DNA from: an uncultured archaeon
Lineage (GTDB): Archaea; Asgardarchaeota; Lokiarchaeia; Sigyniarchaeales; SOKP01
Reading direction: 5' to 3'
DNA: 64,000 nucleotides
Assembly: GCA_964486045.1 (NCBI GenBank)
Contig: CAZALK010000010.1
Span: 64,001 to 128,000, forward strand
Positions 1-17,062 of this stretch are shown piece after piece. A model generated the notes under the pieces. It worked only from the letters and a program-made list of their open reading frames with translations, ran no database searches and was not told where the DNA came from. Made by a program: the position numbers and the translations under genes. Numbering within the stretch: the first letter of the stretch is position 1; every line of letters starts with the position of its first letter.

Positions 1-168
1 TTATACTTATTTAAATGTAAAAATCAACATTTAAGAATTAGGTTCCTTAATTATAAAAATAAAAACCGAATTTATATTGTTTAAAGGTCCTAAAGAATTG
101 AGAAATATTTAAATAAAAAAGTTTAGAGGTAGTTTGTTTTGATCTGTTTTGTCCTTTTCTCTTTTTAC

Positions 169-510
169 CTAACCAATTTGAGTCTTATAATGTTCCACGC
201 AAAACCATGTCTTAGATTTTTTATGATAAGTCATATCTCTATTATGTTTACTACATATTGGGCACTTTACAATAGAGGCTCTTAGAGGACGTTCAATATC
301 CCACCATTTATCAGAAAAACGCTTTAGTATTTCAATTTTTTCCTCAGATGGGTGAATATATTTTCCATTTTTATCATGCTTTAAGTTATGTTCTTGGTCA
401 CTAATTTCCATCTGTCTTTCTGCGCATTCCTTCAAAATAATTAATCATAAATTGTTCCTAGCTCTCTGTAATTTTGGATCTTTGATCCGTATAGTTCTAC
501 CGTTTTTCAT
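169..510 (-). pseudogene. Small Zn-finger protein interrupted by an in-frame TGA (445..447)
   Basis: ATG at 510 gives MKNGRTIRIKDPKLQRARNNL*LIILKECAERQ..., in frame with track ORF 169..435; C-terminal CPIC...WFCxxH motif. Confidence 0.4.
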
Positions 511-688
511 TTATATTCATGTTTATTTTAGTGTGTCTCAAATTTAAATCTTTGTAGAGCGACAGATTTCTAATACCTTAAATACTAAAAATTTGCCTTA
601 AATAGTAAATATCGGCAATGCTGAATACTCTACCTAATTTATATCCTCTATAATCTGATAGTTCTGCTAATGAATTAAGCAGATCACC

Positions 689-838
689 GTGCATTATACA
701 GAAGACGCCCCTCCTATTGAAACAACAGATACTATCATCCCTAATGATTCAATCTTCGGTTATTCAACTATAGTAATTGTTATTATACTGTTCTTCAGTA
801 TTTCAATTAGATTATTCAAAGACAGAAAAAAAATATAA
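689..838 (+). pseudogene. Orphan C-terminal fragment of a membrane-anchored surface protein (Loki-CTERM/PGF-CTERM-like tail)
   Basis: Reads VHYTEDAPPIETTDTIIPNDSIFGYSTIVIVIILFFSISIRLFKDRKKI*: P/T linker, IxGY, TM helix, basic tail; frame closed upstream by TGA at 671. Confidence 0.4.
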
Positions 839-954
839 AATTAATATCATCGTTTTTTTATTTTGATCTTGAGTAATAAAAATTTTTCTAAATGGCATTT
901 TACTAATCTTTCACTCCTATTTTTCTTTTATAAAGATTCATATTTTTATGGTGT

Positions 955-1209
955 ATGGTAGAATCGATTCATCTAAAAGAAATGGAAGACCTTGGTCTTA
1001 GCACTACGATAGAAGGATATTATGTTGAAGAAGATCAAAAATCAGTATCTATTAGGTTACCAAATAGTATGTCTTTTTGGGTACCTAAACGGTTTATTGA
1101 TACTCAATTTTTTAGGGAGACTGATCTCAAGCAAGAGTTCCTTATTGACAATTGGATACTGCGAAAGATCGGACTTAGGTTAGATAAGATCAAAAAAATA
1201 GATCGTTAA
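955..1209 (+). CDS. Hypothetical protein (small beta-rich domain)
   Basis: 84 aa ORF with ATG start and normal composition. Confidence 0.55.
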   Translation: MVESIHLKEMEDLGLSTTIEGYYVEEDQKSVSIRLPNSMSFWVPKRFIDTQFFRETDLKQEFLIDNWILRKIGLRLDKIKKIDR

Positions 1210-1441
1210 AATCTTTTTGGGCTTCTATATCTCGTATGAATTGCTGAAGTGGAGAATCATCCTCAATATAATGAAGAACATCTGAGTGTATCCAAGTAGT
1301 TAAAGGTTTGGCTTCTCTGTACTTTGCCTGTTCATCAGGGCTTAGTGTTAAGTACTCTGAATATTCCTTACACCATCGTATAACTTTATTACTTTTTGCG
1401 CGAAAGTAGTTTCTTTTCTTATGGAGGTTTTGGTAAAGCAA
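1190..1441 (-). CDS. Hypothetical protein, possibly a fragment
   Basis: 83 aa ORF, TTG start, overlaps neighbour by 20 bp. Confidence 0.3.
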   Translation of the reverse strand: MLYQNLHKKRNYFRAKSNKVIRWCKEYSEYLTLSPDEQAKYREAKPLTTWIHSDVLHYIEDDSPLQQFIRDIEAQKDFNDLFF

Positions 1442-1966
1442 ATTCAGCTGACATCAAAAGCACATCATAATTAAAATTTTCAAATTGCATTATTAGTTCA
1501 TTACCTAATGCACTTAGAATTAATATTCAATGGGAGAAGAAAGACGGGAACATCATTCTATATTAATTCCCCCATGTTCTTCCTTAATTTTGATATGAAA
1601 AGGGATTTTATCATTTTGTTTCTGTTCCACGCTTTGAAAAAAGAAATTTGGCATTAGTACAGGAAGGAAAAGAAAAAGGAAGTTAAGTTTTGTTCTTAAT
1701 AGATTCAATTTGAGATATTAAAGGCCACTGATTATAATTTAATTCTTTCTTATCGTATCTATTATTAAATTAGGAATTTATAAAGGGAAATCATTAATAA
1801 ATCCTCTGTCCCTTCACAAATATTGATGATTATTTCCTTCTTAAAGTCATGATAATACAAAACAAGACCAAAGGAAAAAGAACATTTACACCTGAACAAA
1901 AAGAGTAATATAAGACCAAGAAAGAAGCACAAAGTAGTGTTAAGAAATTTATACTTTATTTAATCG

Positions 1967-2926
1967 TTAAAAAAGATTTGAAATTAAATATGAAAACACC
2001 TCATCAATTCCTTCTCCTGTGAGTGCTGATGTTTCAAAAAAAGGGAAATCATATTCCTCTGCTAAATCTTGAGCTCTGGATCTAATTTCTTCCCGATCCA
2101 CTGCTATATCGATCTTATTTCCAACGAGAACAATTGGAATTGATTTATCTTTAATGAATTGATGAGTTTCTTTAATCCAATCAATTATATTATTAAAGGT
2201 CTCTATTCTAGAATAATCGAATAAAATTAGAACCGCATTTGAATAGTTATAATAATATTTTCTAACTTTAGCAAAGCTTTTTATTCCTCCTAGATCGAGG
2301 AGATATAATAATAGATTATAATTCTTTGAAATTTGTAATTTTTTTTCTATTATTGAAATTCCGATTGTAGGTTTGTAAGCTTCATTGTAAGTTCCCATAC
2401 AATACATTCGTACTAAAGCACTTTTCCCTGCTGATTCAGGTCCCACAACAACAATTTTATTTTGATTATTTTTAGTATACAGTGTCCTATTTTTAGGTTT
2501 AAATATTAATTGCATATTTTCGTTTAATTTTGGAATTTTTGATATAGACTCTTGATTATTTAGAATCAGTGATATTTTTTCTGCTGTTAAATAGGCATAT
2601 GGAATAATTTGATCAATATTTGAATAAGGATCTCCTATTAATACAAAAATTGCGGGAGTTACTTTTTTTAACTCCACAAAAAATAGTTGAAATTCATTGG
2701 TACTGAATGTTCCACATCCAAATGAAGTTTCAGCATATTGTCTAATTCTATTTATTGTTTGATCCAAAATTGACATAATAGCTCCTATCATTTCCTCATC
2801 AAATCCTCTGATTGACTGTTTAGCAATAATTAACCCATCTAAATCTAAAATAATGGTTGCTAATAATCCTTGTGTTTCATAAATTAAATCTGAAAGTATA
2901 TCTTCTAGTACTCCTAATTTTGACAT
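1967..2926 (-). CDS. Roadblock/LAMTOR domain fused to a Rab-like small GTPase
   Basis: N-terminal roadblock pattern (GLLATIILDLDGLIIA...EEMIGAIMS); G1 GPESAGKS, G2 YKPTIG, G3 DLGG, G4 NKID, G5 ETSAL; no C-terminal Cys. Confidence 0.9.
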   Translation of the reverse strand: MSKLGVLEDILSDLIYETQGLLATIILDLDGLIIAKQSIRGFDEEMIGAIMSILDQTINRIRQYAETSFGCGTFSTNEFQLFFVELKKVTPAIFVLIGDPYSNIDQIIPYAYLTAEKISLILNNQESISKIPKLNENMQLIFKPKNRTLYTKNNQNKIVVVGPESAGKSALVRMYCMGTYNEAYKPTIGISIIEKKLQISKNYNLLLYLLDLGGIKSFAKVRKYYYNYSNAVLILFDYSRIETFNNIIDWIKETHQFIKDKSIPIVLVGNKIDIAVDREEIRSRAQDLAEEYDFPFFETSALTGEGIDEVFSYLISNLF

Positions 2927-2932
2927 TAGTTT

Positions 2933-3598
2933 CTATAGATCCATATTATATTTGATGTTTAAAATTTTGAATAAATTCTTTAAAATATTCAGACTAGGAA
3001 TGAAGCACATTACACAATCTATTTTTATCTCTTTCAGTGCCAAGTTCGTTTTGATTAAAACCAAATAATCTGATATTTGAGAATATTTTGCAATAATTCT
3101 ATTTAGCATTGCATTTAATGTGTCAAGTGCTACTGTAGGAACATTAGGGACTAATTTAATTGACATTAAATCAGCTAAACCATTTGCATAATGCCCAGAT
3201 AATATGTTACCTATTTCAGTTATGATGCTTAACGAAAGCTCGTCAAGATCCTCACTAGTTCTTACGTTTTCAACAGAAAGATTAGAATCTTCATTCAGAT
3301 AATTAACTAAATTAAAGATTGATTCTTTTGTAAATATTTGAATAATTGATAAATCTGATGTAAGGTGGATTTCAGAATAGATCCCAAATACCTCAACTTT
3401 TGGGCTTTCAAATAATTCTTCTACCTTCCAGAAGGGAATAATATCAGCTGAAGTTAGTGAAACCTCTATTTCATAATTAAATAATTTTGAAAAAGCTGTA
3501 ATTGCATGCCCAGACCCGATGTTTCCAATTTCCTTTAACATGTCTAATTGTTCTGGAGTTAGGTGGAATTCTTCTGGTATCTTAAAATCGTTATTCAT
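2933..3598 (-). CDS. cheC: Chemotaxis phosphatase CheC
   Basis: Two D/S-x3-E-x2-N motifs (DMLKEIGN, SIITEIGN). Confidence 0.92.
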   Translation of the reverse strand: MNNDFKIPEEFHLTPEQLDMLKEIGNIGSGHAITAFSKLFNYEIEVSLTSADIIPFWKVEELFESPKVEVFGIYSEIHLTSDLSIIQIFTKESIFNLVNYLNEDSNLSVENVRTSEDLDELSLSIITEIGNILSGHYANGLADLMSIKLVPNVPTVALDTLNAMLNRIIAKYSQISDYLVLIKTNLALKEIKIDCVMCFIPSLNILKNLFKILNIKYNMDL

Positions 3599-3624: not shown

Positions 3625-4173
3625 TTAATAAAATTTTTTAAAATCTGTTTCTCCAGTTGATTTTACATACAAGGAAAAATCGTTTGTGTCAAAAATCACG
3701 TTTCTCCCCTTTGAACCCCCAGTCTCTTCTTTGATAATTTGTATTTTTAATATATCTAATTCTTCCTTAACAGAAGCGATATTATTAAATCCCACATCAT
3801 TATTTTCTAAATCAAATATTTTTGAGCCTCCTATAATAAATGCCCTAATATTCTCTCTTACAGCACCATGATTTAGTAGTTCTTCCATTAATAATTTTAC
3901 AGAAAAGCTTGCGTATTTATGCGGATATTGGATTATTTTAGTTGGACTTGCTTTGGGTAATAAAATATGAGACATTGCGCTTAATTTGTTTATTTCGTCA
4001 AATAAAACCAGGGCAATGCACGAGCCCAATCCATAAATTGAAATAGTTGGTTTACGATTTGAAAGAAAGTTTTTGCTGTTAGAGAGTGCATAATGCCCAA
4101 TTAGTACAGATATATTTCCATTTCTATCCGTTTCCTTGATTTGATCAATTGGCTCTATAATACTCACCTTCAA
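3625..4173 (-). CDS. cheD: Chemoreceptor glutamine deamidase CheD
   Basis: GLGSCIAL...HILLP catalytic Cys/His; GGSKIF, ETGGSKGR motifs. Confidence 0.93.
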   Translation of the reverse strand: MKVSIIEPIDQIKETDRNGNISVLIGHYALSNSKNFLSNRKPTISIYGLGSCIALVLFDEINKLSAMSHILLPKASPTKIIQYPHKYASFSVKLLMEELLNHGAVRENIRAFIIGGSKIFDLENNDVGFNNIASVKEELDILKIQIIKEETGGSKGRNVIFDTNDFSLYVKSTGETDFKKFY

Positions 4174-4199
4174 TCATGGGTTTAAGTATTGAATATTTA

Positions 4200-5318
4200 T
4201 TATATAAATTTTGTTGCAAATTTAATCATATAATCATGAACTTTATATACTGGAAGTATTAGATTTGCTGCACCTAGCTTTGCTGCTGCTCTTGGCATCC
4301 CATAAATAACACATGTCTCCTCAGATTCAGCGATAGTTTTGCCACCATTATTTTTAATTGCTTTTAATCCCCTTGCACCATCATCTCCCAACCCTGTTAA
4401 TAGAATTCCCATTACATTATTTTTGTATATTTCTGCAGCTGAAAAAAATAAAACATCCACAGAAGGTTTGCAAAAATTGACTGGTTTATCATCAGATATT
4501 CGAATGTGAGGTCTATTTTTTATAGTTATAATCTTCGTGTGTTTTCCACCAGGACTCAAGTAAACATTACCGGGTAATATTCTCTCCCCATCGTCTGGGA
4601 TTTTTACGTTTATTTCACAAACTTGATCCAGAGATTTACTAAGTTGTTTCATAAAAAATGCATCAAGATGTTGAACGATCAAGATTGGGCTTGGAAAATC
4701 CTGAGGAATCTCTTTTAAAATAAATTTTAAAGTTCTTGGTCCACCGGTGCTGGTGCCTATTACTATTAAATTTGCTTCTAATATAAGTTGAGGAGCTTTT
4801 GGAAGATGTAACGGTTTGGGTTTTATTGGTGTTCTTATTTTTCTCTTTACTTCTAATTCATTAATAGATTGTTTGCTAATTGATTTTCTTATTAGATTAT
4901 TTCGTTTTTCATAACTTTTTTTTATTTTTGCTGCGTATAAAACACTTGAAACTAATTTTTCTTGAACCTTTGGGAATTCAGTTTTCCATAGACCTTTGGG
5001 TTTTATTATAAAATCTAATGCTCCTAAAAGTAACGCTTGAACAGAATTATCTAAGTTTTCTGGATTAAAAACTGAAAAAATTATAGTTGGTATTGGATAA
5101 TGTTCTGAAAGAAATTTTAATACTGTTAACCCGTCAACCTCAGGCATTATTAAATCTAATATTAATACATCAGGATTCAACTCTTCAATTTTTTCAATTG
5201 CCTCCCTCCCGTTTCGAGCAGTATCAACAGCAGAAATTTCATTGTGTGAAATTAGCATTTCAGAGATTAATTTTCTTTGATATGCTGAATCTTCTGCAAG
5301 TAATACTCTAACAGACAT
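4200..5318 (-). CDS. cheB: Chemotaxis response regulator / methylesterase CheB
   Basis: N-terminal REC (LDLIMP); methylesterase GTSTGG, VQHL, GLGDDG, KPSVD, YGMP. Confidence 0.96.
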   Translation of the reverse strand: MSVRVLLAEDSAYQRKLISEMLISHNEISAVDTARNGREAIEKIEELNPDVLILDLIMPEVDGLTVLKFLSEHYPIPTIIFSVFNPENLDNSVQALLLGALDFIIKPKGLWKTEFPKVQEKLVSSVLYAAKIKKSYEKRNNLIRKSISKQSINELEVKRKIRTPIKPKPLHLPKAPQLILEANLIVIGTSTGGPRTLKFILKEIPQDFPSPILIVQHLDAFFMKQLSKSLDQVCEINVKIPDDGERILPGNVYLSPGGKHTKIITIKNRPHIRISDDKPVNFCKPSVDVLFFSAAEIYKNNVMGILLTGLGDDGARGLKAIKNNGGKTIAESEETCVIYGMPRAAAKLGAANLILPVYKVHDYMIKFATKFI

Positions 5319-5326
5319 GATAATGT

Positions 5327-6358
5327 TTAATTGACCTTCATATATATTCGATTTAATGAGTCTACTAACTTTAAATTACTCTGGGAGCTAAAAATTGTTT
5401 CTGTTTTACCTATGATTAATAAGCCCCCTGCATTTAAACGATTTTCAATGATTTTTAAGAACTTATTTCTTGCAACTCTATTAATGTATATTAGGAGATA
5501 TCGACAAAAAATGATATCATAAACCTGTGATGTTTGATGGCCTTTCATTACATCTTCCCCAATAAACTTGATATACTTTTTTATTTTTTCATTTATAGTG
5601 TATGTAAATCCGAATCCCACTTTTTTCTTCAAAAAGTAATTTTTTTCAAAATACTTTGAAACATTTTTTGTTGATTCTTCGTTATACACTCCGATATTTG
5701 CTCTTTTAATAGCGTTTTCATCAATATCAGAAGCTATAATTCTGAATTTAGGAAATTGTGGAATTTGTTTTTTAAAATTATCTAAAATTATTGCAATAGA
5801 ATATGGTTCTTCACCGTTTGCACATGGACAAGACCAAATATTAATAGTCTCCTTAAATCTTTGGAAATTCTTCAGCTTTTTATATAAAATACTTTTTGGA
5901 ACGATTTTCTTTGCTGATAATTTATTTTTTAACCTGTGTTCTAAGTCCTTCTTTCTATTGGAAATCTTTTCAATTTTATTTGGTTTCTTTTCACTTTTTT
6001 TACGATATTTTCTTTCTGGATTGGGATGTAAATTACTAATTACATCTTCTCTTTTGTAATTTCCACTTTTTAATATAATGTCTTCCAATTGGTCATAAAC
6101 TTCCCAATTTCTAAAAAAAGTAGAATAATTGATATTAAAACTAATTAAAAATTTATTTATTTCTTTAGGATTTTCTACTAAATATTTGTAATACGATTCA
6201 AAGTTAGAACAATTAACACGAATCATTCGAGATTTAATTCTTTTCTCGATATGTTTTCTTTGATAATATCCTAGTTTTAACCCAGTTGTTTTATTCAAAA
6301 ATCGAATTAATAAATCATAAAAATCCTCATCAAATTTAATATCCTCAATTAGTATCAC
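5327..6358 (-). CDS. cheR: Chemotaxis methyltransferase CheR with a lysine-rich insertion
   Basis: INYSTFFRN, IWSCPCANGEEPYS, IIASDID, DIIFCRYLLIY, GGLLIIGKTE. Confidence 0.93.
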   Translation of the reverse strand: MILIEDIKFDEDFYDLLIRFLNKTTGLKLGYYQRKHIEKRIKSRMIRVNCSNFESYYKYLVENPKEINKFLISFNINYSTFFRNWEVYDQLEDIILKSGNYKREDVISNLHPNPERKYRKKSEKKPNKIEKISNRKKDLEHRLKNKLSAKKIVPKSILYKKLKNFQRFKETINIWSCPCANGEEPYSIAIILDNFKKQIPQFPKFRIIASDIDENAIKRANIGVYNEESTKNVSKYFEKNYFLKKKVGFGFTYTINEKIKKYIKFIGEDVMKGHQTSQVYDIIFCRYLLIYINRVARNKFLKIIENRLNAGGLLIIGKTETIFSSQSNLKLVDSLNRIYMKVN

Positions 6359-6368
6359 TTGTGAACAC

Positions 6369-6923
6369 TTATTTTTCTATTAATTTTTCAATTTCGGTAA
6401 ATCGTTCACTGATACGTTCAAATGAATACTTAATATGCATTTGGATTTCTTTAACTTCGGCAAAAAGCTTTCTTATATGAGATCTATCGGACTTTGATAA
6501 AACAAACTGATTTTTTGAATATATTTTATGAATTGGCTCATGTATAGATGGAGAAGAGACAAATGGCTCTAAAACCTCATCCCTACTAAATTCTTGTCTA
6601 GATTGCCCAGGAAAACTTAGATCAGAAACATCCTCTTTAATTTCTTTAAGTATACTAACGAATTCAGCAGGTTCAATGCCTTGTTTTATAACTTCATATT
6701 TGAAATTATAAAATTTCTTCTTAGTTTTAAGTTTTCCAGCCCAATTCGCTGCCATGTACCTATGAAACAACCGGGAGTGACTACCTGCCCAGATCCAAAT
6801 TAGTTTTAGTCCTTTATCTACAATTAAATAAACTTCAGAGGGATTGAACAACTTCTCTGGTCTGAGCTTGATTGTTTCACCGTCGACCTTATAAACATAA
6901 TCGTAATAGCTACTTTCTGTCAT
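6369..6923 (-). CDS. Single gelsolin-domain protein with a C-terminal helical/coiled-coil extension
   Basis: FNPSEVYLIVD-x5-IWIWAGSHS and VIKQGIEPAEF match the gelsolin-repeat pattern. Confidence 0.75.
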   Translation of the reverse strand: MTESSYYDYVYKVDGETIKLRPEKLFNPSEVYLIVDKGLKLIWIWAGSHSRLFHRYMAANWAGKLKTKKKFYNFKYEVIKQGIEPAEFVSILKEIKEDVSDLSFPGQSRQEFSRDEVLEPFVSSPSIHEPIHKIYSKNQFVLSKSDRSHIRKLFAEVKEIQMHIKYSFERISERFTEIEKLIEK

Positions 6924-7034: not shown

Positions 7035-9035
7035 CTACGAATAGAACCTTAATAGAGCATCTAATAATTCCTGGAGTGTTTCTAAGTTTGGAATAAATAA
7101 GAAAGTTCCTGTAATTTTAAAATCTGTTACAATCACGCTCGTATCTATAACTAGTGATAATTTCTTCAATAGCCCAATTTCTTCTTTTAGAATCCTAAAT
7201 AACTGTTGTCCAGTGTCTACAGACATGTCAGGAGGTTCTGTCATCAATTTTAAGCCAAGTAAATTACCAATTGCACTTACATAATGACTTCCAAGAATAT
7301 GTCCTAGTTCAGAGAGTGCACTTTTATAGAGGTCAGGAAAATCAGAAGCCTTGTTAATTTTCTTTCTTAAATCTATCTGCCTTTTACTAGTATCATCAAC
7401 TATTATTGAAGTAATGTCAACTGCATCTTTCAAATTAAATATTGTTAACACTGTAGCTCTTGCTCTTCCAACAACATTACTCCATGCAACTAAGAGTTTT
7501 TCATCTTTTCTGCTAATTGAATTTGCATAATCATCTAATTCCACCATCTGAACGGAAGGAATGTTGATATCAACTCTCTTGTTAATCATCTGAGCTAAGG
7601 CATTTGCAGCATTCCCTGCGCCTATATTACCAACTTCTTGAAGGGCATCTCTTTGAACTTCCGAGAGTTCAATTTTTGATAACTCCAGAAGTTCAGGAGC
7701 TTTTTTAGTTTTTGCTGGTGTTTCTGAAATTTCATGTCTAATTTCAAGTTTTTTAAAGATAATTGAGAGAGTTTCAATATCTGGAATAAAGAAGAACATA
7801 CCTTTTAGTTTTAAGTCAGATACTTTTATAGATGTCTGAATGATAATGAAAAAATCTGCAATCGCTTCAAATTCTTTTGAAAGAAATTCCCCTATTTCCC
7901 CAGCAGTACTCATAGTAAATTCAGGGACGTCAATCATTAGCTTTGTGCCAAGCAGATCAGCTAAGGCTGAAGCATAATGACCTGCCATAATGTTTCCCAT
8001 TTCTGTTATCGTGGATATAGCATAATCATCAAGATCCTTTTTAGTTTTAACCTTATTAGGTACAATCTTTGAATCTGGACCTGCTAAATCTGATATTAGA
8101 TGCATTAGGGGCTTCATTTCAAAGATATTCAGTATAGTTGCTGGAGAGGGCTTTTCTATATGACAAAAAATTCCACATACTTTATCATTTTTACCACCGA
8201 ATTGGCTTGGGAGTTCATCTAATGGAATTATGCCTACATCAGTGAGAGTTACGTCAATCTTCTTTTTTACTAATCTAGATAAAGCAGTGACTGCATTTCC
8301 TGTCCCAATATTCCCTAATTCTTTCAAAGTGTCTTGTTGTTCTGCTGATAAAACTACTAGCTTTTCTTTTTTAACTTTTTTAACTTTTTTGGTGGTTGTT
8401 GCTTTTGGTAGTTTTTGTTTCTTTTTTGGTGCTTGAACAATTTGTGGAATTACAAGCGTAGAATCAATATCTGGTCTATCAATTATCTTCGGTTGCACTT
8501 TAGGACGTTCTAGGCTTGTTGGCTTTATATCGATTTTTTTCTCAATTTTTCGACCCATTGATTTGATATATGGCTGAATTAAAGCATCTAAATCTAATAA
8601 TATCAAAGATTCATCCTCGAATACTCCGGTTAATTTTATTAGTTTAAAATCTATATTAGTCTTAACAATAGTTCCTTGTTTTTTGAAGATTGCAAGGGGT
8701 ATATCTCTAACACCGATTACTACATCTACTAACACTGCTATTTTAAGATTTCTGTATTCTAGCAATAAAATCCTTGAAAACTCATCGATGCCATAATCTA
8801 TATCATTCCCATATATATTATGTCTTAATGATATGATTGAGTAGATCTCCCCTCTTATACTGATAATGCCCACGATTGATTTATCTGTTAATGGTACAGA
8901 AACAATATCATCTCCGGGTACATAAATTTCCTTAATGTTTGAAACTTCGAGAAGATATTTTTCATCAAGCACTTGTATTATTACCACATTTATGTTTTCT
9001 CCAAATTCTATTTCTTCAGATTTACTTTTAAACAT
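7035..9035 (-). CDS. CheW-CheC-CheC fusion protein
   Basis: N-terminal CheW (VGIISIRGEIYSIISL, IAVLVDVVIGV), K/P-rich linker, two CheC domains (DTLKELGN, STITEMGN; DALQEVGN, SALSELGH). Confidence 0.9.
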   Translation of the reverse strand: MFKSKSEEIEFGENINVVIIQVLDEKYLLEVSNIKEIYVPGDDIVSVPLTDKSIVGIISIRGEIYSIISLRHNIYGNDIDYGIDEFSRILLLEYRNLKIAVLVDVVIGVRDIPLAIFKKQGTIVKTNIDFKLIKLTGVFEDESLILLDLDALIQPYIKSMGRKIEKKIDIKPTSLERPKVQPKIIDRPDIDSTLVIPQIVQAPKKKQKLPKATTTKKVKKVKKEKLVVLSAEQQDTLKELGNIGTGNAVTALSRLVKKKIDVTLTDVGIIPLDELPSQFGGKNDKVCGIFCHIEKPSPATILNIFEMKPLMHLISDLAGPDSKIVPNKVKTKKDLDDYAISTITEMGNIMAGHYASALADLLGTKLMIDVPEFTMSTAGEIGEFLSKEFEAIADFFIIIQTSIKVSDLKLKGMFFFIPDIETLSIIFKKLEIRHEISETPAKTKKAPELLELSKIELSEVQRDALQEVGNIGAGNAANALAQMINKRVDINIPSVQMVELDDYANSISRKDEKLLVAWSNVVGRARATVLTIFNLKDAVDITSIIVDDTSKRQIDLRKKINKASDFPDLYKSALSELGHILGSHYVSAIGNLLGLKLMTEPPDMSVDTGQQLFRILKEEIGLLKKLSLVIDTSVIVTDFKITGTFLFIPNLETLQELLDALLRFYS

Positions 9036-9079: not shown

Positions 9080-9940
9080 TTATTTTATCATAATTCCTTT
9101 CCAGATTAATTCTACTTCAGGATCATCCTCATTCACTTCAGTGTAAAAGTCCAATTGCTTAAAAATCGAAATTTGGCCACCACTTGTGTGTTTATAAACG
9201 TAATTTAGTAAGTCATCAATACTAATGAAATTAAATCCTGCTACTTTTAATTCTGAATCATTCACAATTAACAAGTCTTCTCGTTTGAAAAAACGATTTT
9301 CTTCAATAAATTCTACCATCAATGTAGGATCTACCTCTTTACTAATTACCTTAATTGGTGTGTCAAACGGTATATTTCGAAACGACTTACTGGTTGCAAA
9401 AATAACCTTATCTGGAAGTAGATTTTCTTGCTTAGCATAATTGGTAATTTCAGTTAATACTTTCTTGTAATTACTTAATTCTAAGATATCGTGACAAGAA
9501 ACCAACAACACTTTATTTTCACTAGTTTCAATGATAAAATCAAGAAACCGATCTGAACTAGAATTTATATTAATTTTTATTGACTCTACCTTCAAATCTT
9601 CCGTATATTTAAGATTTTGATAGAATCTCCACTTTACTGCTTTTTTATCATTTTCTTCCCTGCTGATAAAAACTTGAAAAAGTTTTTTCAATTGTTCAAG
9701 GTTTAATTTCGATAAATCTGCTATTTTATCAACATCAGTACCTATTGGAACATAATCCTTACTAGTAGTTGTCTTTGACTTTGATTTTGTGTTTTTAGTT
9801 TTTTTGGTTTTTTTAGATTCAACATCATCCAAATAAATTTGTAATTCGCTTTTTGTGAATTTTGGGAGAATTTGTTCAATAAGGTATAATAAATATTCTT
9901 TCGATTTATCATCCATTGTTTCATAAAACTGTAAATTCAT
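9080..9940 (-). CDS. Hypothetical protein in the che cluster
   Basis: 286 aa, GGAGG ribosome-binding motif upstream, co-oriented within the cluster. Confidence 0.8.
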   Translation of the reverse strand: MNLQFYETMDDKSKEYLLYLIEQILPKFTKSELQIYLDDVESKKTKKTKNTKSKSKTTTSKDYVPIGTDVDKIADLSKLNLEQLKKLFQVFISREENDKKAVKWRFYQNLKYTEDLKVESIKININSSSDRFLDFIIETSENKVLLVSCHDILELSNYKKVLTEITNYAKQENLLPDKVIFATSKSFRNIPFDTPIKVISKEVDPTLMVEFIEENRFFKREDLLIVNDSELKVAGFNFISIDDLLNYVYKHTSGGQISIFKQLDFYTEVNEDDPEVELIWKGIMIK

Positions 9941-9966
9941 TTTTTTTCCTCCTTTTTTTATTTTTG

Positions 9967-11982
9967 TTACCCAACGAAAAATGATTCCAATTCTGATTGC
10001 TTAACATCGCTACTACTTCCTATATTTTTTAAATAGTACATAACCTCTCTTTCTTGAAACGGTAATAAAGTATCAAATGTGAAAGAAATTTTCTGTTCTC
10101 TATTATTTTTTGATTTGCTAACTTTATAATCTAAGTTTGAAGATATAAGCTCAAAAGAATCTGGAAAAGTATCTGTAACATTGACATCACTTAATTTTAT
10201 ATTAGACCCATTTTTGGCTACAATGTAAATAGCAAATTCATTGCTACTTCTCCCTGGGAAGATCTCTTTTCCTACCATCAATTTACGCCGCTTGTGAGAT
10301 ATTTTAATAGCAGATTGATCCATCTTTGAGAGATCATCCATTATAATGAAAAATTCATTCTTATCTCCTGATCCTACATATTTTGGATAGTATGAGTGTA
10401 CTTGTAATGGAAAATTATACGCTTTTTTATAATCTGGTGTAATAGCCTTAAGAGGGTATTTTATTTCCAAGAAATCTTCTACTTCAATCACAGAATCTAA
10501 ACGATAATTCTTTAGATTGATACTTAACTCAAGAGTATGTTCATGTGAAGGATCATTATCATCAGGACTAACTTTTATTTCAAGATCGTCAACTTCTAAT
10601 GCGCCAGATGATCTATATAATTTATACTCGGAAATATCCCTAGGGGGTAAAAAGTCTTCTGGAATTGTTTCTAAAACCAGAAGTCCCTTAATTGGAATCG
10701 TTCCTTCATTGTTAATAATTATCCTAGAATTTATTTTCGTTTCTTGAAATGATTTGATTTCTCCTTCTGCTAATTTTTTCTTAATTAAAACGCGAGTTAA
10801 CTTAAATGTAGTCTCATCGTATTTTGAAATTAGCGTTGAATTACTCTCAGTTTTGTAATCTACGGAATATTCAACTTTTCTAGTAAAATTGGGTTCTTTC
10901 TCATCAATGATATCAAAATATTCTGATGTAAATTTCCCCCGAGGGAGTACAACTTTCTCATTAGCTTCACTAAAATCATATCCTAGTATTTTCTTCGATT
11001 TTGTTTTATCATAGATTAATATCGACTTCAATTTCATCTTGAAATCACTATGGTTTTCAAATATAAGTGAACACTGCCAATGATTAGGAGCATAATTTTT
11101 CTCAGATTTCTTGATTGCATGCATAGCATGAGAGTATCCTGAGAATTTATTTATTTTTACTCCAGATATGACTTTTTCTGATAGGTTAAAAGTTAATTCA
11201 TATTTACCAGTTTTTATGTTTTCTTTCTTTTTGGGAAATATTTTAGCGATAAACACTATTTCTACTTTTTCCATAGAGTTTAAGTTATTTATGGAGCATT
11301 CAATTGAATTTTGAGATATCTTAAAATCGCTATTTGAGTTACTTTTAAATTCCAAGTCATAAAAACCCTGAGAAAAATCTTTCTTTAGTTTAATTTTCTC
11401 TAGAGATGAATCTGATATATTTTCGATTGAAATCGAAAATTTTATGACATTCTCCCTTCCTATCATTAATAGATAATTATTAGCTTTACCATTGCTAGTA
11501 AGATATTCACTATCAACCGAAGAACTGCTTTTAAGATCTTCAACTTTATTTTCAATATTTTCCTGTAATTTTACCAAATCTGGTATTTCCTCCGAGTTGA
11601 CAATTTCATATTTTAAAACTTTATTTGAACTCGGTTCAAAAATCCCTAAACTGATGTTGTTTTCATCACTTTGATTATTAAATTGAGATCCAGAGAATTG
11701 TAAGTTTGCATCCCATATCCGATCCTTAATTGAATTATTGAATATTGAAATATTTCCATTACCGAGTGCTGATTTTCTACTTCCATTATTATCATAGTCA
11801 AATTCTAAAAATTCCTCATTTAATATTAAAATATCTGAAAACGCACCTGTGTAGCTTGATTCAATTTTCTTCTCTCGATATGTTTTTTCGACAAGTTTTC
11901 CTCCTTCTCTTATAGGGATACCAAGAAAATTTGGGCTCATTTTCGTTTTTAATTCTTCATAATCAACTTTTTTAAATCCCAT
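9967..11982 (-). CDS. Large cytoplasmic multi-beta-sandwich protein (DUF11/Ig-like repeats; N-terminus resembles an adaptin mu-homology domain)
   Basis: Repeated N-x-(G/S)-x3-L/I-x2-V-x-V-x-D/E-x-(I/F)-P-x2-F strands; no signal peptide or TM; GGAGG upstream. Confidence 0.6.
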   Translation of the reverse strand: MGFKKVDYEELKTKMSPNFLGIPIREGGKLVEKTYREKKIESSYTGAFSDILILNEEFLEFDYDNNGSRKSALGNGNISIFNNSIKDRIWDANLQFSGSQFNNQSDENNISLGIFEPSSNKVLKYEIVNSEEIPDLVKLQENIENKVEDLKSSSSVDSEYLTSNGKANNYLLMIGRENVIKFSISIENISDSSLEKIKLKKDFSQGFYDLEFKSNSNSDFKISQNSIECSINNLNSMEKVEIVFIAKIFPKKKENIKTGKYELTFNLSEKVISGVKINKFSGYSHAMHAIKKSEKNYAPNHWQCSLIFENHSDFKMKLKSILIYDKTKSKKILGYDFSEANEKVVLPRGKFTSEYFDIIDEKEPNFTRKVEYSVDYKTESNSTLISKYDETTFKLTRVLIKKKLAEGEIKSFQETKINSRIIINNEGTIPIKGLLVLETIPEDFLPPRDISEYKLYRSSGALEVDDLEIKVSPDDNDPSHEHTLELSINLKNYRLDSVIEVEDFLEIKYPLKAITPDYKKAYNFPLQVHSYYPKYVGSGDKNEFFIIMDDLSKMDQSAIKISHKRRKLMVGKEIFPGRSSNEFAIYIVAKNGSNIKLSDVNVTDTFPDSFELISSNLDYKVSKSKNNREQKISFTFDTLLPFQEREVMYYLKNIGSSSDVKQSELESFFVG

Positions 11983-12035: not shown

Positions 12036-14114
12036 TTAATTAGTTATTTGAGATACTATATTTTTATTGAACTTCGAAGAAATTATACTTAGCACATCAA
12101 TTATTAGACAAATAGCCCCTTCACCTGTTATTGTAGAACCTAAAATATCACGAGAATCTGAGTAATTAGATTTAAATGGTTTTACAACAATGTCAAGCTG
12201 CTGTAGTTGTTTGTCAGCTATAAATACTGCCGAGTTTGTTTCATCTCTTTGGCACCAAACAGCTATTTTTTTATGAGCGTTTGTTGTACTTTTCTTTACC
12301 ATCTCTAAATGCTCCTCTAAATAAATTATTGGTATTTTTTTACTACCAATTCTGTAATATTGTTCTCCATCTTCATGTTCAACCTGATTTGGGTTGAAGA
12401 AGTATATTTGTTTTATGTTTTCAGTTGGAATAGCGAATAAGTCATTAGAAATTTGCATTAGTTGTGCTCTTAGAATTGCTCGTGTAAATGGAACAATTAG
12501 TGTAAATCTTGTTCCAATATTTTTTTCAGAGTAAATTGTAAAATCTCCACCAAGTTCTCCTATTTTCTCAGCCACTATAGCCATTCCCATACCTCTTCCG
12601 GAAAGGATATCGGCCTCAGAGAGTGTTGAAAATCCAGGCATTAAAATGAATTTATGAAGCTCTTCATTATCTATCTCTTTTACCTCGTTCTCATCGTAGT
12701 AACCTTTCTCTACAACTTTCTTTCTAATTTTATCGTAATTAATCCCAGCACCATCATCTTGTACTTCAATATAAATTGAGCCTGCTCGTCTATATGTATT
12801 GATTCTCAAAGTGGCAACGTCATTTTTACCCATTTTCCGCCTTTCCTTCGGTAACTCTATTCCATGATAAATAGCATTCCTTATAAGCTGAACTAAAGGA
12901 GAATTTAGGTCTTCTAAAATTTTCCTGTCAATTTCGACATTTGTTCCTTCTAAAATCAACTTAAGTTTTTTACCAGTTTCATTTGCTAAATCGCGAACTA
13001 ATCTCTTATATTTTCTAAATGTTGACTCAACTCTGACTAATTTTAATCTGAATAGAATTTCTTGAATATCGAGAAATGGTTTATCCATTTTATCAAATAA
13101 TCGAGAGATAGTTCTATCTTGTTTTTCCTTTAAAAGTTGAGAGATATGATTCTTCATTACTATTAGTTCTCCAAAATAATTCATAAGCTCTTCTAAGTAT
13201 TCAACATTAACTTTTACACTAGAAATTCTAATAGTTTCTCCCGAAAAATCATCTACTATTTTAGAAACCCTTTCAACCTCTTCATCAAAAGTCTCTTCTT
13301 CCATATCAGTTTCATATCTTGATTCTATACTTACATCCTCAGGTTTCTCCCTTTCCCATTGTTCTTTAAGTTCGATAATTATTTTTTCAAACTCTTCAGG
13401 TTTCATTGGTTTTATGACTTTGCTTTCAATCTCTAGGATCTCAGCGATCGTGTGAGATATTTCGGTTTTATTCTTTGTAGTTATGAAGTATATTTCAAAC
13501 TCATTCTTCAAAGTTGCTTTTTCTAAATCTTCAGGAGCAGGATGAGTCCAGCATATTTTGCCATTTTCATTTAGTGCTCGAAATATTATAAATAACCTAA
13601 CTTTTTTGAAGACACATGTTTCTTCAAGCCTAATATAAATTTTAAATGGTTTGTTCTGCTTTTTTTGTAGAATTTTAGAGATTTCTTCTTGTGATAACGC
13701 TTGGATAAATGTTATATCGTAATCACTTTCAAAACTTTCAAAGCTATCTTTGATATCTTCCACAAATTTTGCGTCTAAGTCAGTTAAATCTCCAGTTTTT
13801 ACTCTTTTTATTACCATTCTTAACACATCAAGTGATTCAAAGAGCATATCAACGAAATCACTTTTCTTATTAAGACTGGCTTTTTTTTCTTTTGCATTTT
13901 CTAAAAAGGATTCAAAATGATGGCAAAATTTTGATAAGTTATCAAACCCTGCCATTGCAGTTAATCCTTTTAACGTGTGAAAAGTAAAAAAGAGTCCTTG
14001 AACTGGTTTTAGATCATCTGGATTTTCCTCTATATTTAGAATTTCATCTTCTGTTTTCTGAATCAGATCCTCTGCTTCACTAACAAATAGTTTCATATCG
14101 TCTTTGGATGACAC
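12036..14114 (-). CDS. cheA: Chemotaxis histidine kinase CheA
   Basis: Hpt FHTLKG, P2 domain, LIRNAIYHGIE, DDGAGI, PGFST...SGRGMGM, C-terminal CheW-like P5. Confidence 0.97.
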   Translation of the reverse strand: MSSKDDMKLFVSEAEDLIQKTEDEILNIEENPDDLKPVQGLFFTFHTLKGLTAMAGFDNLSKFCHHFESFLENAKEKKASLNKKSDFVDMLFESLDVLRMVIKRVKTGDLTDLDAKFVEDIKDSFESFESDYDITFIQALSQEEISKILQKKQNKPFKIYIRLEETCVFKKVRLFIIFRALNENGKICWTHPAPEDLEKATLKNEFEIYFITTKNKTEISHTIAEILEIESKVIKPMKPEEFEKIIIELKEQWEREKPEDVSIESRYETDMEEETFDEEVERVSKIVDDFSGETIRISSVKVNVEYLEELMNYFGELIVMKNHISQLLKEKQDRTISRLFDKMDKPFLDIQEILFRLKLVRVESTFRKYKRLVRDLANETGKKLKLILEGTNVEIDRKILEDLNSPLVQLIRNAIYHGIELPKERRKMGKNDVATLRINTYRRAGSIYIEVQDDGAGINYDKIRKKVVEKGYYDENEVKEIDNEELHKFILMPGFSTLSEADILSGRGMGMAIVAEKIGELGGDFTIYSEKNIGTRFTLIVPFTRAILRAQLMQISNDLFAIPTENIKQIYFFNPNQVEHEDGEQYYRIGSKKIPIIYLEEHLEMVKKSTTNAHKKIAVWCQRDETNSAVFIADKQLQQLDIVVKPFKSNYSDSRDILGSTITGEGAICLIIDVLSIISSKFNKNIVSQITN

Positions 14115-14138
14115 ATAATCACCTTATTTTTTATGTAT

Positions 14139-14537
14139 TTAGGCTTTTTTATACTTTAGTATACGATCCATAACCTCTAAGATTTGTTCAGTTTTGAATG
14201 GTTTTTGGATAAAATCTTTTGCCCCTTTTTTAGCAGCTTCTAGAACTAGAGCTTCCTGTCCTAGTGCTGATACTACAACGATTAATGCCTTTGAGTTTAT
14301 TTTTAGAATCTCCTCTGTAGCTTCAATTCCACCCTTTTCTGGCATTACTAAGTCCATAGTGACCAAATCTGGGCTTAATTTTTTATATAGGGAGATTGCT
14401 TCTACTCCGTTGGAGGCTTCACCGATTACTTCAATTTGTTCGATCTTGCTAATGATGTTTTTTAGCATATTTCGGGTAAATTGCGCGTCATCGACGATAA
14501 GTACCCTTTTCTTCCCATTCTTTTCATTCTTTGACAT
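14139..14537 (-). CDS. cheY: Chemotaxis response regulator CheY
   Basis: VDD, TMDLVMP, VSALGQ, DFIQKPF; adjacent to cheA. Confidence 0.95.
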   Translation of the reverse strand: MSKNEKNGKKRVLIVDDAQFTRNMLKNIISKIEQIEVIGEASNGVEAISLYKKLSPDLVTMDLVMPEKGGIEATEEILKINSKALIVVVSALGQEALVLEAAKKGAKDFIQKPFKTEQILEVMDRILKYKKA

Positions 14538-14566
14538 TTTATTTTATTCAACTCCTATTTTTTGTT

Positions 14567-15088
14567 TTATGTTAATGATGATAAATCTTGTTGAATCCTA
14601 AATTTTTCTACCTCGCTAAAAATCTTAGATAAGTCAAGCACCACCCTTGGTCTATCCTCAAAATTAATTATACCTTTGATAAATTCAATAGCAACACTTG
14701 TTTGAAAAATAGGACTCAACCCAATAATCTCCTCAGGAAGGATGTGATCAATACTGACTATTTGATCCACATAAAAACCTATGAGATCATTTTCTACTTT
14801 TAAAATTATTATAAACTTCTTTGTCTCACTTGAATCTTGTTCAAAAGAGGACCGCTTCTCATGGTATAAGAGGTATTTATCTAAGTCTAATTTTCTTCTT
14901 AAGTTAATTACATGAATAATATCTCCCCTGTAATTGTATATACCATCTATATAGTCGATGCTTTTCGGTAATTTCCTGATTTGTCCTGCCTGAATTATTT
15001 CCTTAACATCCAGGAGGTCAATAACAAATTCTTCCCACCCTATTTTAAAAGTAAGGATGGAAATTTGATCTATTTCTTTTTGAGCCAT
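14567..15088 (-). CDS. cheW: Chemotaxis coupling protein CheW
   Basis: VKEII...LPKS...GIYNYRGDIIHVINLR, GFYVDQI. Confidence 0.93.
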   Translation of the reverse strand: MAQKEIDQISILTFKIGWEEFVIDLLDVKEIIQAGQIRKLPKSIDYIDGIYNYRGDIIHVINLRRKLDLDKYLLYHEKRSSFEQDSSETKKFIIILKVENDLIGFYVDQIVSIDHILPEEIIGLSPIFQTSVAIEFIKGIINFEDRPRVVLDLSKIFSEVEKFRIQQDLSSLT

Positions 15089-15108: not shown

Positions 15109-15921
15109 TTATATTATAAAATATTGGTTAATGTTTTTTTCAAATTCGTTAAAGGGAGTTACATCCCCATTAAAATTTTTTAAATAGTCTTTATATTGAT
15201 ATAAAAATTCATCTGCAATGAGGTACATATACCTTTGAAGCAGTGAATTCATATTGTCTACCAAAAATGCAAAAATTACATTACTTTTTGATATAACATA
15301 GAATTGTTGATTCCCAAAATTAATTTCCTTGAGCTTAGCACCAGTTTCCTCTCCTATAATTGTATTGGAAAAGGATAAAAGAGCTGAAATAAATCCACCA
15401 ATGTGAACCTCGTGGTCAGCAATATTGCTACGAGCCTTATTTATTTTTGAAATAAAAGGACTTCCCGCAGAACCAATTACGAAAATAGCAATAATTCCCT
15501 CACTTCGAGGGATTTGAACCGTATTCTCAAATACTTCTATTATCTCTGTGATTGAAGCATTCGAAACTACTTTTTGATTTATTTTTTTTGATAAGAGGTA
15601 TAGACTTCCAAAACTTACAGACTGGTCCTTTTCCTCCATATAAATAATAACTGAAATATCATCCTCACTATTTTTAAAATATTGGATGAAAATTGTAAAA
15701 TCATCTAAAGGAATGATTGAATTTCCCTGCTTTTTGTTAATTATCTCTTTTTTATATAATTCAATAATATTCTGGATAAGCGGGACACCTATTCCTTTTT
15801 GAAATCCAATGTCAAATTTAGCACTAGAGCTAATGTCTGAAATCATTAAAATGCCATAACCTAGCATCTGTAATTTTTCTGAGCCATTGTTACTATTTTG
15901 AGCATTGTTCATAGCTATCAT
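15109..15921 (-). CDS. Longin-domain protein (possibly two longin-like domains); first gene of the che cluster
   Basis: C-terminal IFVIGSAGSP...GGFISALLSFS...LKEINFG...EFLYQY...FNGDVTPF, the Asgard longin pattern. Confidence 0.7.
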   Translation of the reverse strand: MIAMNNAQNSNNGSEKLQMLGYGILMISDISSSAKFDIGFQKGIGVPLIQNIIELYKKEIINKKQGNSIIPLDDFTIFIQYFKNSEDDISVIIYMEEKDQSVSFGSLYLLSKKINQKVVSNASITEIIEVFENTVQIPRSEGIIAIFVIGSAGSPFISKINKARSNIADHEVHIGGFISALLSFSNTIIGEETGAKLKEINFGNQQFYVISKSNVIFAFLVDNMNSLLQRYMYLIADEFLYQYKDYLKNFNGDVTPFNEFEKNINQYFII

Positions 15922-16375: not shown

Positions 16376-17062
16376 ATTACAAGAAGTGAATCAGATATAA
16401 CAACAAATAATGTAAATATAGCAAAAGAAAAGTTTTTCCAAGAAATCCAAATCGTATGCCCCAAATGTAAAAGTAATAAGGAGCTGAAAATACCTGTCAA
16501 GGTAATAAATCAAAGTAAACAACTTACAACAATCTCAATACCGTCAGGATTATGTTGTGAGCATAGTTTTCAATCGTTTGTTGATAAGAATTTTATTGTT
16601 AGGGGCTATCAAAATGTAGACTTTGAGTTTTCTCATATGGAATTATATGAAAGTAGTGATTCATCTTTAGAGGATAAAGATGATCACGGAGATAAAGCAT
16701 TGGATATTTCTTCCTTACCTATTTTTCAAGGAATACTCCAAATATTAAGAGATTGTGTAGATGATAAAGAGATATTGGGGAGTGGGATATTTAGTATTGA
16801 AGGGAAAGTTTTATACTCATCTCTCCCACAAACTACGCTATTTAATACTATCCGAGAATTTGAAGTGAGGAGTGAAAGGAACTTGGTGAGTGTAAAACAA
16901 ATGTATCTTGAATTAGAGAATAATGAAAAATTTATTTCTAAATTTATGCAAATTAATGGGAGGAAATTCAATTTGGTCTTAATGTTTTCTTTTAGGGTGA
17001 AGTTTGGCATGGGGAATTTGCATTTAAGGGATTTATTGAAGAAAATCGCGAAACTAAATTAA
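16376..17062 (+). CDS. Zn-ribbon plus roadblock-like domain protein; true start lies upstream of track ORF 16637, probably non-AUG
   Basis: Frame open from 16358 and encodes CPKC...GLCCEHSFQSFVDKNFIVRGYQ before M16637; no ATG/GTG/TTG in that stretch, first ATT at 16376; C-terminal ILGSGIFSIEGKVLYSSLP is roadblock-like. Confidence 0.65.
   Translation: MTRSESDITTNNVNIAKEKFFQEIQIVCPKCKSNKELKIPVKVINQSKQLTTISIPSGLCCEHSFQSFVDKNFIVRGYQNVDFEFSHMELYESSDSSLEDKDDHGDKALDISSLPIFQGILQILRDCVDDKEILGSGIFSIEGKVLYSSLPQTTLFNTIREFEVRSERNLVSVKQMYLELENNEKFISKFMQINGRKFNLVLMFSFRVKFGMGNLHLRDLLKKIAKLN

Follow-up and report, generated by a model that had tools for sequence, protein, structure and literature searches.

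Asgard archaea encode dozens of small GTPases per genome, almost none of which has, to our knowledge, an assigned role. Similarly, we know of no output for Asgard chemotaxis genes where an archaellum is not found. Both subjects meet in a stretch of 64,000 nucleotides (hereafter the window) on contig 10 of a 5.18-Mb, 99% complete Lokiarchaeial (Promethearchaeota) genome, where a gene for a small GTPase lies within a cluster of chemotaxis (che) genes (Table 1). This raises the question of what a GTPase does in a chemosensory system. A first-pass annotation of the window had proposed that the protein, a fusion of a roadblock domain to a Rab-like GTPase without the catalytic Gln, is a self-contained switch resembling the MglB-MglA pair, possibly gated by CheY-P, CheC or the longin protein of the operon.

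Table 1. Features of the GTPase gene and of the surrounding che cluster (positions in the window).
Feature	Position	Strand	Basis
Roadblock-RasL (Rab-like) GTPase fusion, 319 aa	1967..2926	-	ORF call, Pfam and structure model
Roadblock/LC7 domain, residues 1-125	2552..2926	-	Pfam PF03259 in 63/69 family members and model topology
G domain, residues 155-319	1970..2464	-	Pfam Ras, E 7.9e-36; nearest structures are Rabs
Ile215, position of the catalytic Gln (Ras Q61)	2282..2284	-	Alignment
Pro186, position of MglA Arg53 / Thor-Rab Arg37 (intrinsic Arg finger)	2369..2371	-	Alignment, PMC10933270 numbering
Glu164, Ras G12 position of the P-loop	2435..2437	-	Clade rows compared with other roadblock fusions
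cheC, 6 nt upstream of the GTPase	2933..3598	-	Annotation
cheD, cheB, cheR	3625..6358	-	Sequence motifs; gene order conserved in relatives
Single gelsolin-like domain protein, 184 aa, core cluster member	6369..6923	-	Structure-database matches and co-occurrence
CheW-CheC-CheC fusion	7035..9035	-	
Two conserved uncharacterised genes (286 aa; 671 aa, DUF11-like)	9080..11982	-	
cheA, cheY, cheW	12036..15088	-	
Tandem-longin protein, first cluster gene	15109..15921	-	Structure model
Genome-specific 1.9-kb insert between GTPase and cheB2	24..1932	.	Absent from L046, L095-L098

The ATG of the GTPase gene follows the TAG of cheC after exactly 6 nt, as first reported. All elements of the Ras small-GTPase signature (G1 GxxxxGK[ST], G2 Thr, G3 DxxG, G4 NKxD and G5 SA) are present, as had also been claimed, in the form of GPESAGKS (residues 162-169), Thr187, DLGG-I (211-215), NKID (270-273) and SAL (300-302). 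The G domain reaches 123.5 bits with Pfam Ras, and 15.5 bits, below the cut-off of 22, with the Gtr1_RagA profile. In a fold search with the structure model (pLDDT 85, pTM 0.84), it scores highest against Rabs (Z 22-23.5, rmsd about 2 A) and reaches Z 15.9 against MglA. Thor-Rab (7ezb) is among its closest solved relatives, and alignments with Rab39B and Rab30 show no more than partial matches to the RabF1-F5 motifs. The N-terminal part matches Robl_LC7 weakly on its own (E 0.004), but 63 of 69 family members match this profile, the best with E 8.5e-7, and the model has the topology helix-strand-strand-helix-strand-strand-strand-helix. The roadblock assignment, and with it the fusion described at first, rests on Pfam and topology, because a PDB sequence search with the roadblock part yielded no relevant match and fold searches with the whole model gave match lists filled by the G domain. 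A homodimer prediction with GTP and Mg had a median of 0.41, the mark being 0.42, and carries no weight for or against a dimer. Comparison with close orthologues gives dN/dS values of 0.13-0.19, indicative of purifying selection. Judged from these data, the protein consists of a roadblock domain and a G domain with intact nucleotide-binding boxes, maintained by selection. Its named homologues come mostly from Promethearchaeota. The C-terminus, SNLF, is devoid of the prenylation Cys, as the first-pass annotation had remarked. This absence is uninformative and was rejected as a special feature, since a Cys among the last five residues occurs in one of 69 GTPase-domain proteins of the host genome and Asgard Rab-like proteins generally lack it (Tran et al., 2024, PMC10933270). 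In MK-D1, according to the same study, 26 of 74 small GTPases carry roadblock or longin domains.

The Ile noted at the outset occupies the site of the catalytic Gln, facing this residue of Rab39B, Rab30 and Thor-Rab in the alignments. Of 121 homologues (query included), none has Gln here and 107 have Leu or Ile; in several members G3 is altered further, with Asn, Ser or Ala within DxxG. The host genome encodes at least 65 small GTPases, seven of which are roadblock-RasL fusions. At the Q61 position of the 56 GTPases parsed, 39 Gln and 13 Glu are found (the latter in single-domain Rab-like proteins, most of them in one tree clade), the fusion in the window being the only one with an aliphatic residue. 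In a quick tree of 132 G domains, with SH-aLRT values as its only support, the Gln-less proteins form one group of 52 rows (SH-aLRT 97, stem 0.47). A single loss of Gln accounts for the pattern, as the residue is kept in none of these 52 rows, whereas all 30 roadblock-RasL fusions outside the clade, from other genomes, retain it. Moreover, Glu or Asp occupies the Ras G12 position in 39 of 51 clade rows, in contrast with Gly in 24 of the 30 other fusions, and Pro stands at the position of the MglA Arg finger in all 52 rows. According to the alignments, the clade has thus lost both the Ras-type and the MglA-type intrinsic catalytic residues. In Ras and Rab proteins, substitutions of the Q61L type and at G12 slow hydrolysis and blunt the action of Arg-finger GAPs. 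Slow intrinsic GTP hydrolysis is therefore a reasonable inference for the present GTPase. Rap provides a case of a Gln-less GTPase whose catalytic residue comes from its GAP; a search for Rab25 as a natural example of Leu at this position gave no result.

The relationship with che genes was surveyed in 135 genomes of the family, 44 of them CheA-positive and 91 other. In the tree, 46 of the 52 clade rows directly adjoin a gene of a che cluster, the deepest branches (L077, L078) included; for five rows, the sole che neighbour is cheB2, a second cheB gene. Orthologues are thus mostly beside che genes, and not away from them, and the che-linked copies fall in the one supported clade, the outcome that the first-pass annotation had suggested checking by phylogeny. 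The six other rows represent longer proteins, of 430-488 aa, and branch from within the clade. This nesting is likely but not firm, since a tree in which the che-adjacent rows alone were constrained to be monophyletic could not be rejected (p-AU 0.065). Linkage persists down to 41% identity and through several rearrangements. Rearranged pairs comprise gelsolin-GTPase (L070, L071, L073, L075, L133), cheR-GTPase (L068) and cheB-GTPase-cheB2 (L063, L065), and the GTPase is not adjacent to cheC in L063, L065-L071, L073 and L075. The clade is one lineage that lost Gln once and is located beside che genes, and the host of the GTPase in the window has CheA, CheY, receptors and actins.

The short form of the GTPase occurs in 32 of the 135 genomes; 31 have this CheA, and the 32nd, 69% complete, has an adjacent cheC. 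The GTPase is accessory to the che cluster, as the short form is missing from 13 of the 44 CheA-positive genomes, some of these being cases of broken contigs. In four of them (G003, G024, G199 and G296) the flanks are intact. G003 displays a clean loss of the GTPase gene with cheB2 kept, and in G199 and G296 the cluster is reduced, the GTPase being absent together with cheR, cheB and cheB2. In G024 (L170:6650-6808), the first 53 GTPase codons are joined to the 3' end of the gene between cheC and cheB2, the latter being kept; this remnant is either an internal deletion or an assembly artefact. Another truncated locus is that of G004 (L183:11702-13151), where cheA is cut after about 240 codons and joined to a cheB2 remnant, most of the cluster being deleted. 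In genus g14, CheA is found in two of 42 genomes and both carry the short GTPase and the gelsolin-like gene. The latter is present in 39 of the 44 CheA-positive genomes and in none of the 91 others, the short GTPase in 31 of the 44, counts that show persistence rather than independent events, since the genomes are related and the genes linked. Because it follows CheA more tightly, the gelsolin-like protein is a better candidate than the GTPase for the direct Che output. It should be noted that gain or loss of an operon affects all its genes at once, so that co-occurrence is not independent proof of function.

In six CheA-less genomes, a derived subclade of GTPases of 430-457 aa is encoded at a distance from any che gene. 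These long proteins have a 120-aa C-terminal extension with a weak DUF6290 match. Long copies (L062:1243-3888, L072, L176:6117-8532, L178:5075-7606) adjoin genes for a Cys-rich 190-aa protein and for a 160-aa protein, and with these neighbours they possibly constitute a second, separate module. Outside the family, the clade was detected in a single genome, from family f4, and in a record labelled Helarchaeota. In 16 che clusters of other Asgard families, some of them cut by contig ends, no such GTPase or gelsolin was found in the stretches read.

The GTPase was first taken for the last gene of the che operon. However, the same strand carries cheB2 (G000:C10:62612-63943), which codes for a 443-aa protein with REC and methylesterase domains and stops 57 bp to the left of the window. 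Most close relatives show the arrangement cheC-GTPase-cheB2, the last two genes being 54-130 bp apart. The 1.9-kb insert that separates them here is flanked by an imperfect 25-bp direct repeat of a spacer motif, and other contigs contain parts of it with identities of up to 91%, among them a 280-bp part that is about 90% identical on contigs 11 and 19. It contains three small ORFs (169-435, 955-1209 and 1190-1441), and its 88-aa ORF family is also found directly after cheB2 in L053, L054 and L113. As a TATA-like motif is conserved in the GTPase-cheB2 spacer, cheB2 may have its own promoter and the GTPase may be the last gene of one transcript. A sigma-70 promoter scan, the model of which does not suit archaea, remained at chance level.

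Other genes of the cluster deserve attention. The gelsolin-like protein matches villin and the Asgard gelsolins 7c2f, 7c2h and 7whf (E 5e-6 to 5e-5); it is divergent and its actin activity is only putative. The product of the first cluster gene had been annotated as a longin. The fold holds, but the model (pLDDT 85) contains two longin domains in tandem instead of one, the C-terminal domain resembling the VAMP7 longin (Z 12.8) and the N-terminal domain that of Lst4 (Z 10.6). The N-terminal domain also matches the longins of SMCR8, FLCN and DENND1A, a likeness of fold that alone shows no function. Paralogues of the tandem longin with about 40% identity occur in many che-less genomes, a match being found in 99 of 135. 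The DUF11-like 671-aa gene is also located after cheA/cheD in L214, a more distant che cluster, and in another such cluster, L216, both this gene and the 286-aa gene are; neither cluster has the GTPase or the gelsolin in the stretch read. The 671-aa and 286-aa genes may be the oldest non-canonical members of the cluster. Finally, a divergent 141-aa ORF (16637-17062) corresponds to the C-terminal part of a 210-220-aa family whose relatives have an N-terminal CxxC region. In many loci a member of this family borders the che cluster, at one end or the other, and the copy in the window looks shortened.

What the Che system controls in these organisms can be approached from the motility genes. No archaellin was detected in 37 CheA-positive Asgard genomes, and the host genome (99% complete, with positive controls) gave neither archaellin nor CheF, and no FliMN_C match (FliM/N). 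It has 10 MCP matches and several actins (E 1e-126 to 1e-132). In Lokiarchaeum ossiferum, che genes and putative arrays have been described (PMC9834061). Asgards crawl by means of Lokiactin with gelsolins and profilins, as seen in two cultured species in a study where chemotaxis is not mentioned (PMC13716822). In the host, chemical sensing via the che cluster may therefore be directed at the actin cytoskeleton and not at a rotary motor. The full chain, in which bacterial-type chemotaxis in Lokiarchaeia would act on actin through a Rab-like GTPase, a longin regulator and a gelsolin-like protein for directed crawling, is put forward tentatively, as a possibility more likely to be wrong than right.

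The GTPase is very probably tied to the che system in its function, in one way or another. With a probability of roughly 0.4, it is a slow switch biased towards the GTP state, which a partner resets in trans and which lies on a path from Che to actin. This reading is favoured because the intrinsic catalytic residues have been lost and the roadblock domain cannot supply the chemistry of MglB, which brings the Arg and Gln of MglA itself into position (PMC4316618); both residues are absent here. By analogy with Ras and Rab biochemistry, Leu or Ile at Q61, an acid at G12 and the lack of an intrinsic Arg would make hydrolysis slow and leave this small GTPase, apparently devoted to chemosensing in a single Lokiarchaeial lineage, mostly GTP-loaded. 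A partner would then supply the catalytic residue in trans and reset it, as proposed for the Group 1 Rup GTPases, the roadblock domain serving as a dimer or docking platform and not as a self-sufficient GAP. The gene context suggests that the phosphorylation state of the Che system, through CheY-P or the REC domain of CheB2, could set the nucleotide state or the location of the GTPase via a regulator encoded in the cluster; judged by its fold, the tandem longin is the best candidate for this part. The GTP form would provide a slow, persistent signal biasing actin remodelling through the gelsolin-like protein, and thus the direction of protrusion. Within such a scheme, the GTPase would be a modulating branch and not an obligatory Che output. 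Frz signalling to MglA in Myxococcus and the Gln-less Rup1 GTPases encoded with signalling genes (PMC4316618) offer precedents.

Several observations run against a path from Che to actin, namely the long subclade in CheA-less genomes, the CheA-positive genomes without the short form, four of them with intact flanks, the che clusters of other Asgard families in which no such GTPase or gelsolin was found in the stretches read, and the divergence of the gelsolin-like protein. A che-dedicated GTPase could instead work on the input side, in the positioning or assembly of receptor arrays or in adaptation via CheB2, CheC or CheD. Indeed, cheC upstream and cheB2 downstream are its most persistent neighbours, and the GTPase-cheB2 pair was relocated as a unit in L066, L067, L069 and L009, in the first three of these away from the gelsolin-like gene and cheA, which also weighs against the actin path. 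The joint absence of the GTPase, cheR, cheB and cheB2 in G199 and G296 points in the same direction. However, cheB2 is kept without the GTPase in G003 and G024, and the GTPase has no adjacent cheB2 in L064, L068, L070, L074, L099 and L123-125, so that an input-side role, which has to be taken seriously, is on balance unlikely. It could also be argued that a host so rich in small GTPases and roadblock-RasL fusions simply harbours a general-purpose GTPase that arrived early in the cluster and was retained by linkage or shared expression; some che operons do without the gene, and long variants have been retained where che is absent. Nevertheless, none of the 135 genomes has the short form in the absence of che, the linkage survives divergence and rearrangement, and Gln was lost on the same branch. 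A passenger of this kind is thus improbable.

The remaining alternatives concern the chemistry and the target of the switch. The absence of Gln and of an intrinsic Arg, the acid at G12 and the altered G3 of several members would suit a permanently GTP-bound, non-cycling scaffold regulated by its level or location. Yet conservation at Gly214, at Thr187 and in both switch regions equals that of the remaining G-domain core, as expected of a working switch, and we consider such a scaffold quite improbable. The self-contained MglB-MglA pair of the first-pass annotation, with the fused roadblock as GAP, is consistent with the presence of both domains in one chain, with the pTM of the model and with the conservation of roadblock helix 2 and the following loop. 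It finds no support in the chemistry, as the MglA residues positioned by MglB are Pro and Ile or Leu here, Gln never being present. Furthermore, the G domain is Rab-like and not MglA-like, and the same fusion exists in Gln-bearing paralogues unrelated to che, all of which renders a GAP in cis very unlikely. Lastly, the pathway might control a type IV-like pilus system instead of actin, as MglA controls pili in Myxococcus and the host has a divergent TadA/FlaI-like ATPase (C1:641841-644000; 106 bits against a FlaI cut-off of 550). But the ATPase locus is unlinked to che, no pilus gene was found in any che locus read, and the cluster has a gelsolin-like gene instead; little credit can be given to this target. 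Next to the ATPase gene lie a gene for a hydrophobic protein of 507 aa, a short ORF that is likewise hydrophobic and a V4R gene (L232:2869-6998; G000:C1:639865-644000), possibly a pilus-like assembly locus.

The Gln-less clade provides a conserved signalling context for one Asgard GTPase, together with a short list of candidate partners, apparently soluble. As a natural Q61L-like subfamily, it predicts a novel kind of GAP. If the slow switch between Che and actin is real, a prokaryotic two-component input would be wired to a eukaryote-style GTPase-actin output, and the actin link would illustrate how receptor signalling could couple to small GTPases and actin before eukaryotes. The che-GTPase module, found only in this Lokiarchaeial family and in two or three outside records, need not be ancestral to eukaryotes.

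The roadblock-GTPase architecture itself is already known from the RasL group of Asgard fusions (bioRxiv 10.1101/2024.02.28.582541), with which the present protein shares a roadblock followed by a Rab-like G domain and the lack of a C-terminal Cys. The other fusions sampled keep Gln (30/30) and none was seen beside che, whereas the subfamily described here is Gln-less, has an acid at G12 and is tied to che. The loss of Gln and the che linkage appear to be its new aspects; the literature searched, which left out most subscription journals, contains no description of it. In Myxococcus, Frz-MglA/MglB likewise brings a Ras-superfamily GTPase and a roadblock protein together with chemosensory signalling in a cell that has no rotary motor. 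However, MglA has its own Arg and Gln, MglB is separate and mglA is not near frz (PMC4316618), whereas the Asgard G domain is Rab-like, fused, without Arg and Gln, and encoded inside the che cluster. Group 1 Rup proteins are also Ras-like GTPases without the G3 Gln, encoded near signalling genes, for which a catalytic residue in trans was proposed (PMC4316618). They are single-domain proteins from a four-gene neighbourhood with a cyclase or kinase, unlike the fused roadblock and che neighbourhood of the Asgard GTPase. Rag/Gtr GTPases, which work with Ragulator, also have a G domain and a roadblock in one chain, but with the G domain first and the roadblock at the C-terminus; the order is reversed in the Asgard fusion, whose G domain scores as Ras/Rab (123 bits). 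With archaeal F1-type chemotaxis, which involves CheF and the archaellum (PMC13747009), and with the che genes of L. ossiferum (PMC9834061), the host shares CheA, B, C, D, R, W and Y and scattered MCPs. It differs in that neither archaellin nor CheF was found and that longin, gelsolin-like and GTPase genes lie within the cluster. As for eukaryotic Rabs, their C-terminal prenylation Cys has no counterpart in the Asgard GTPase, the fold of which is nevertheless closest to theirs.
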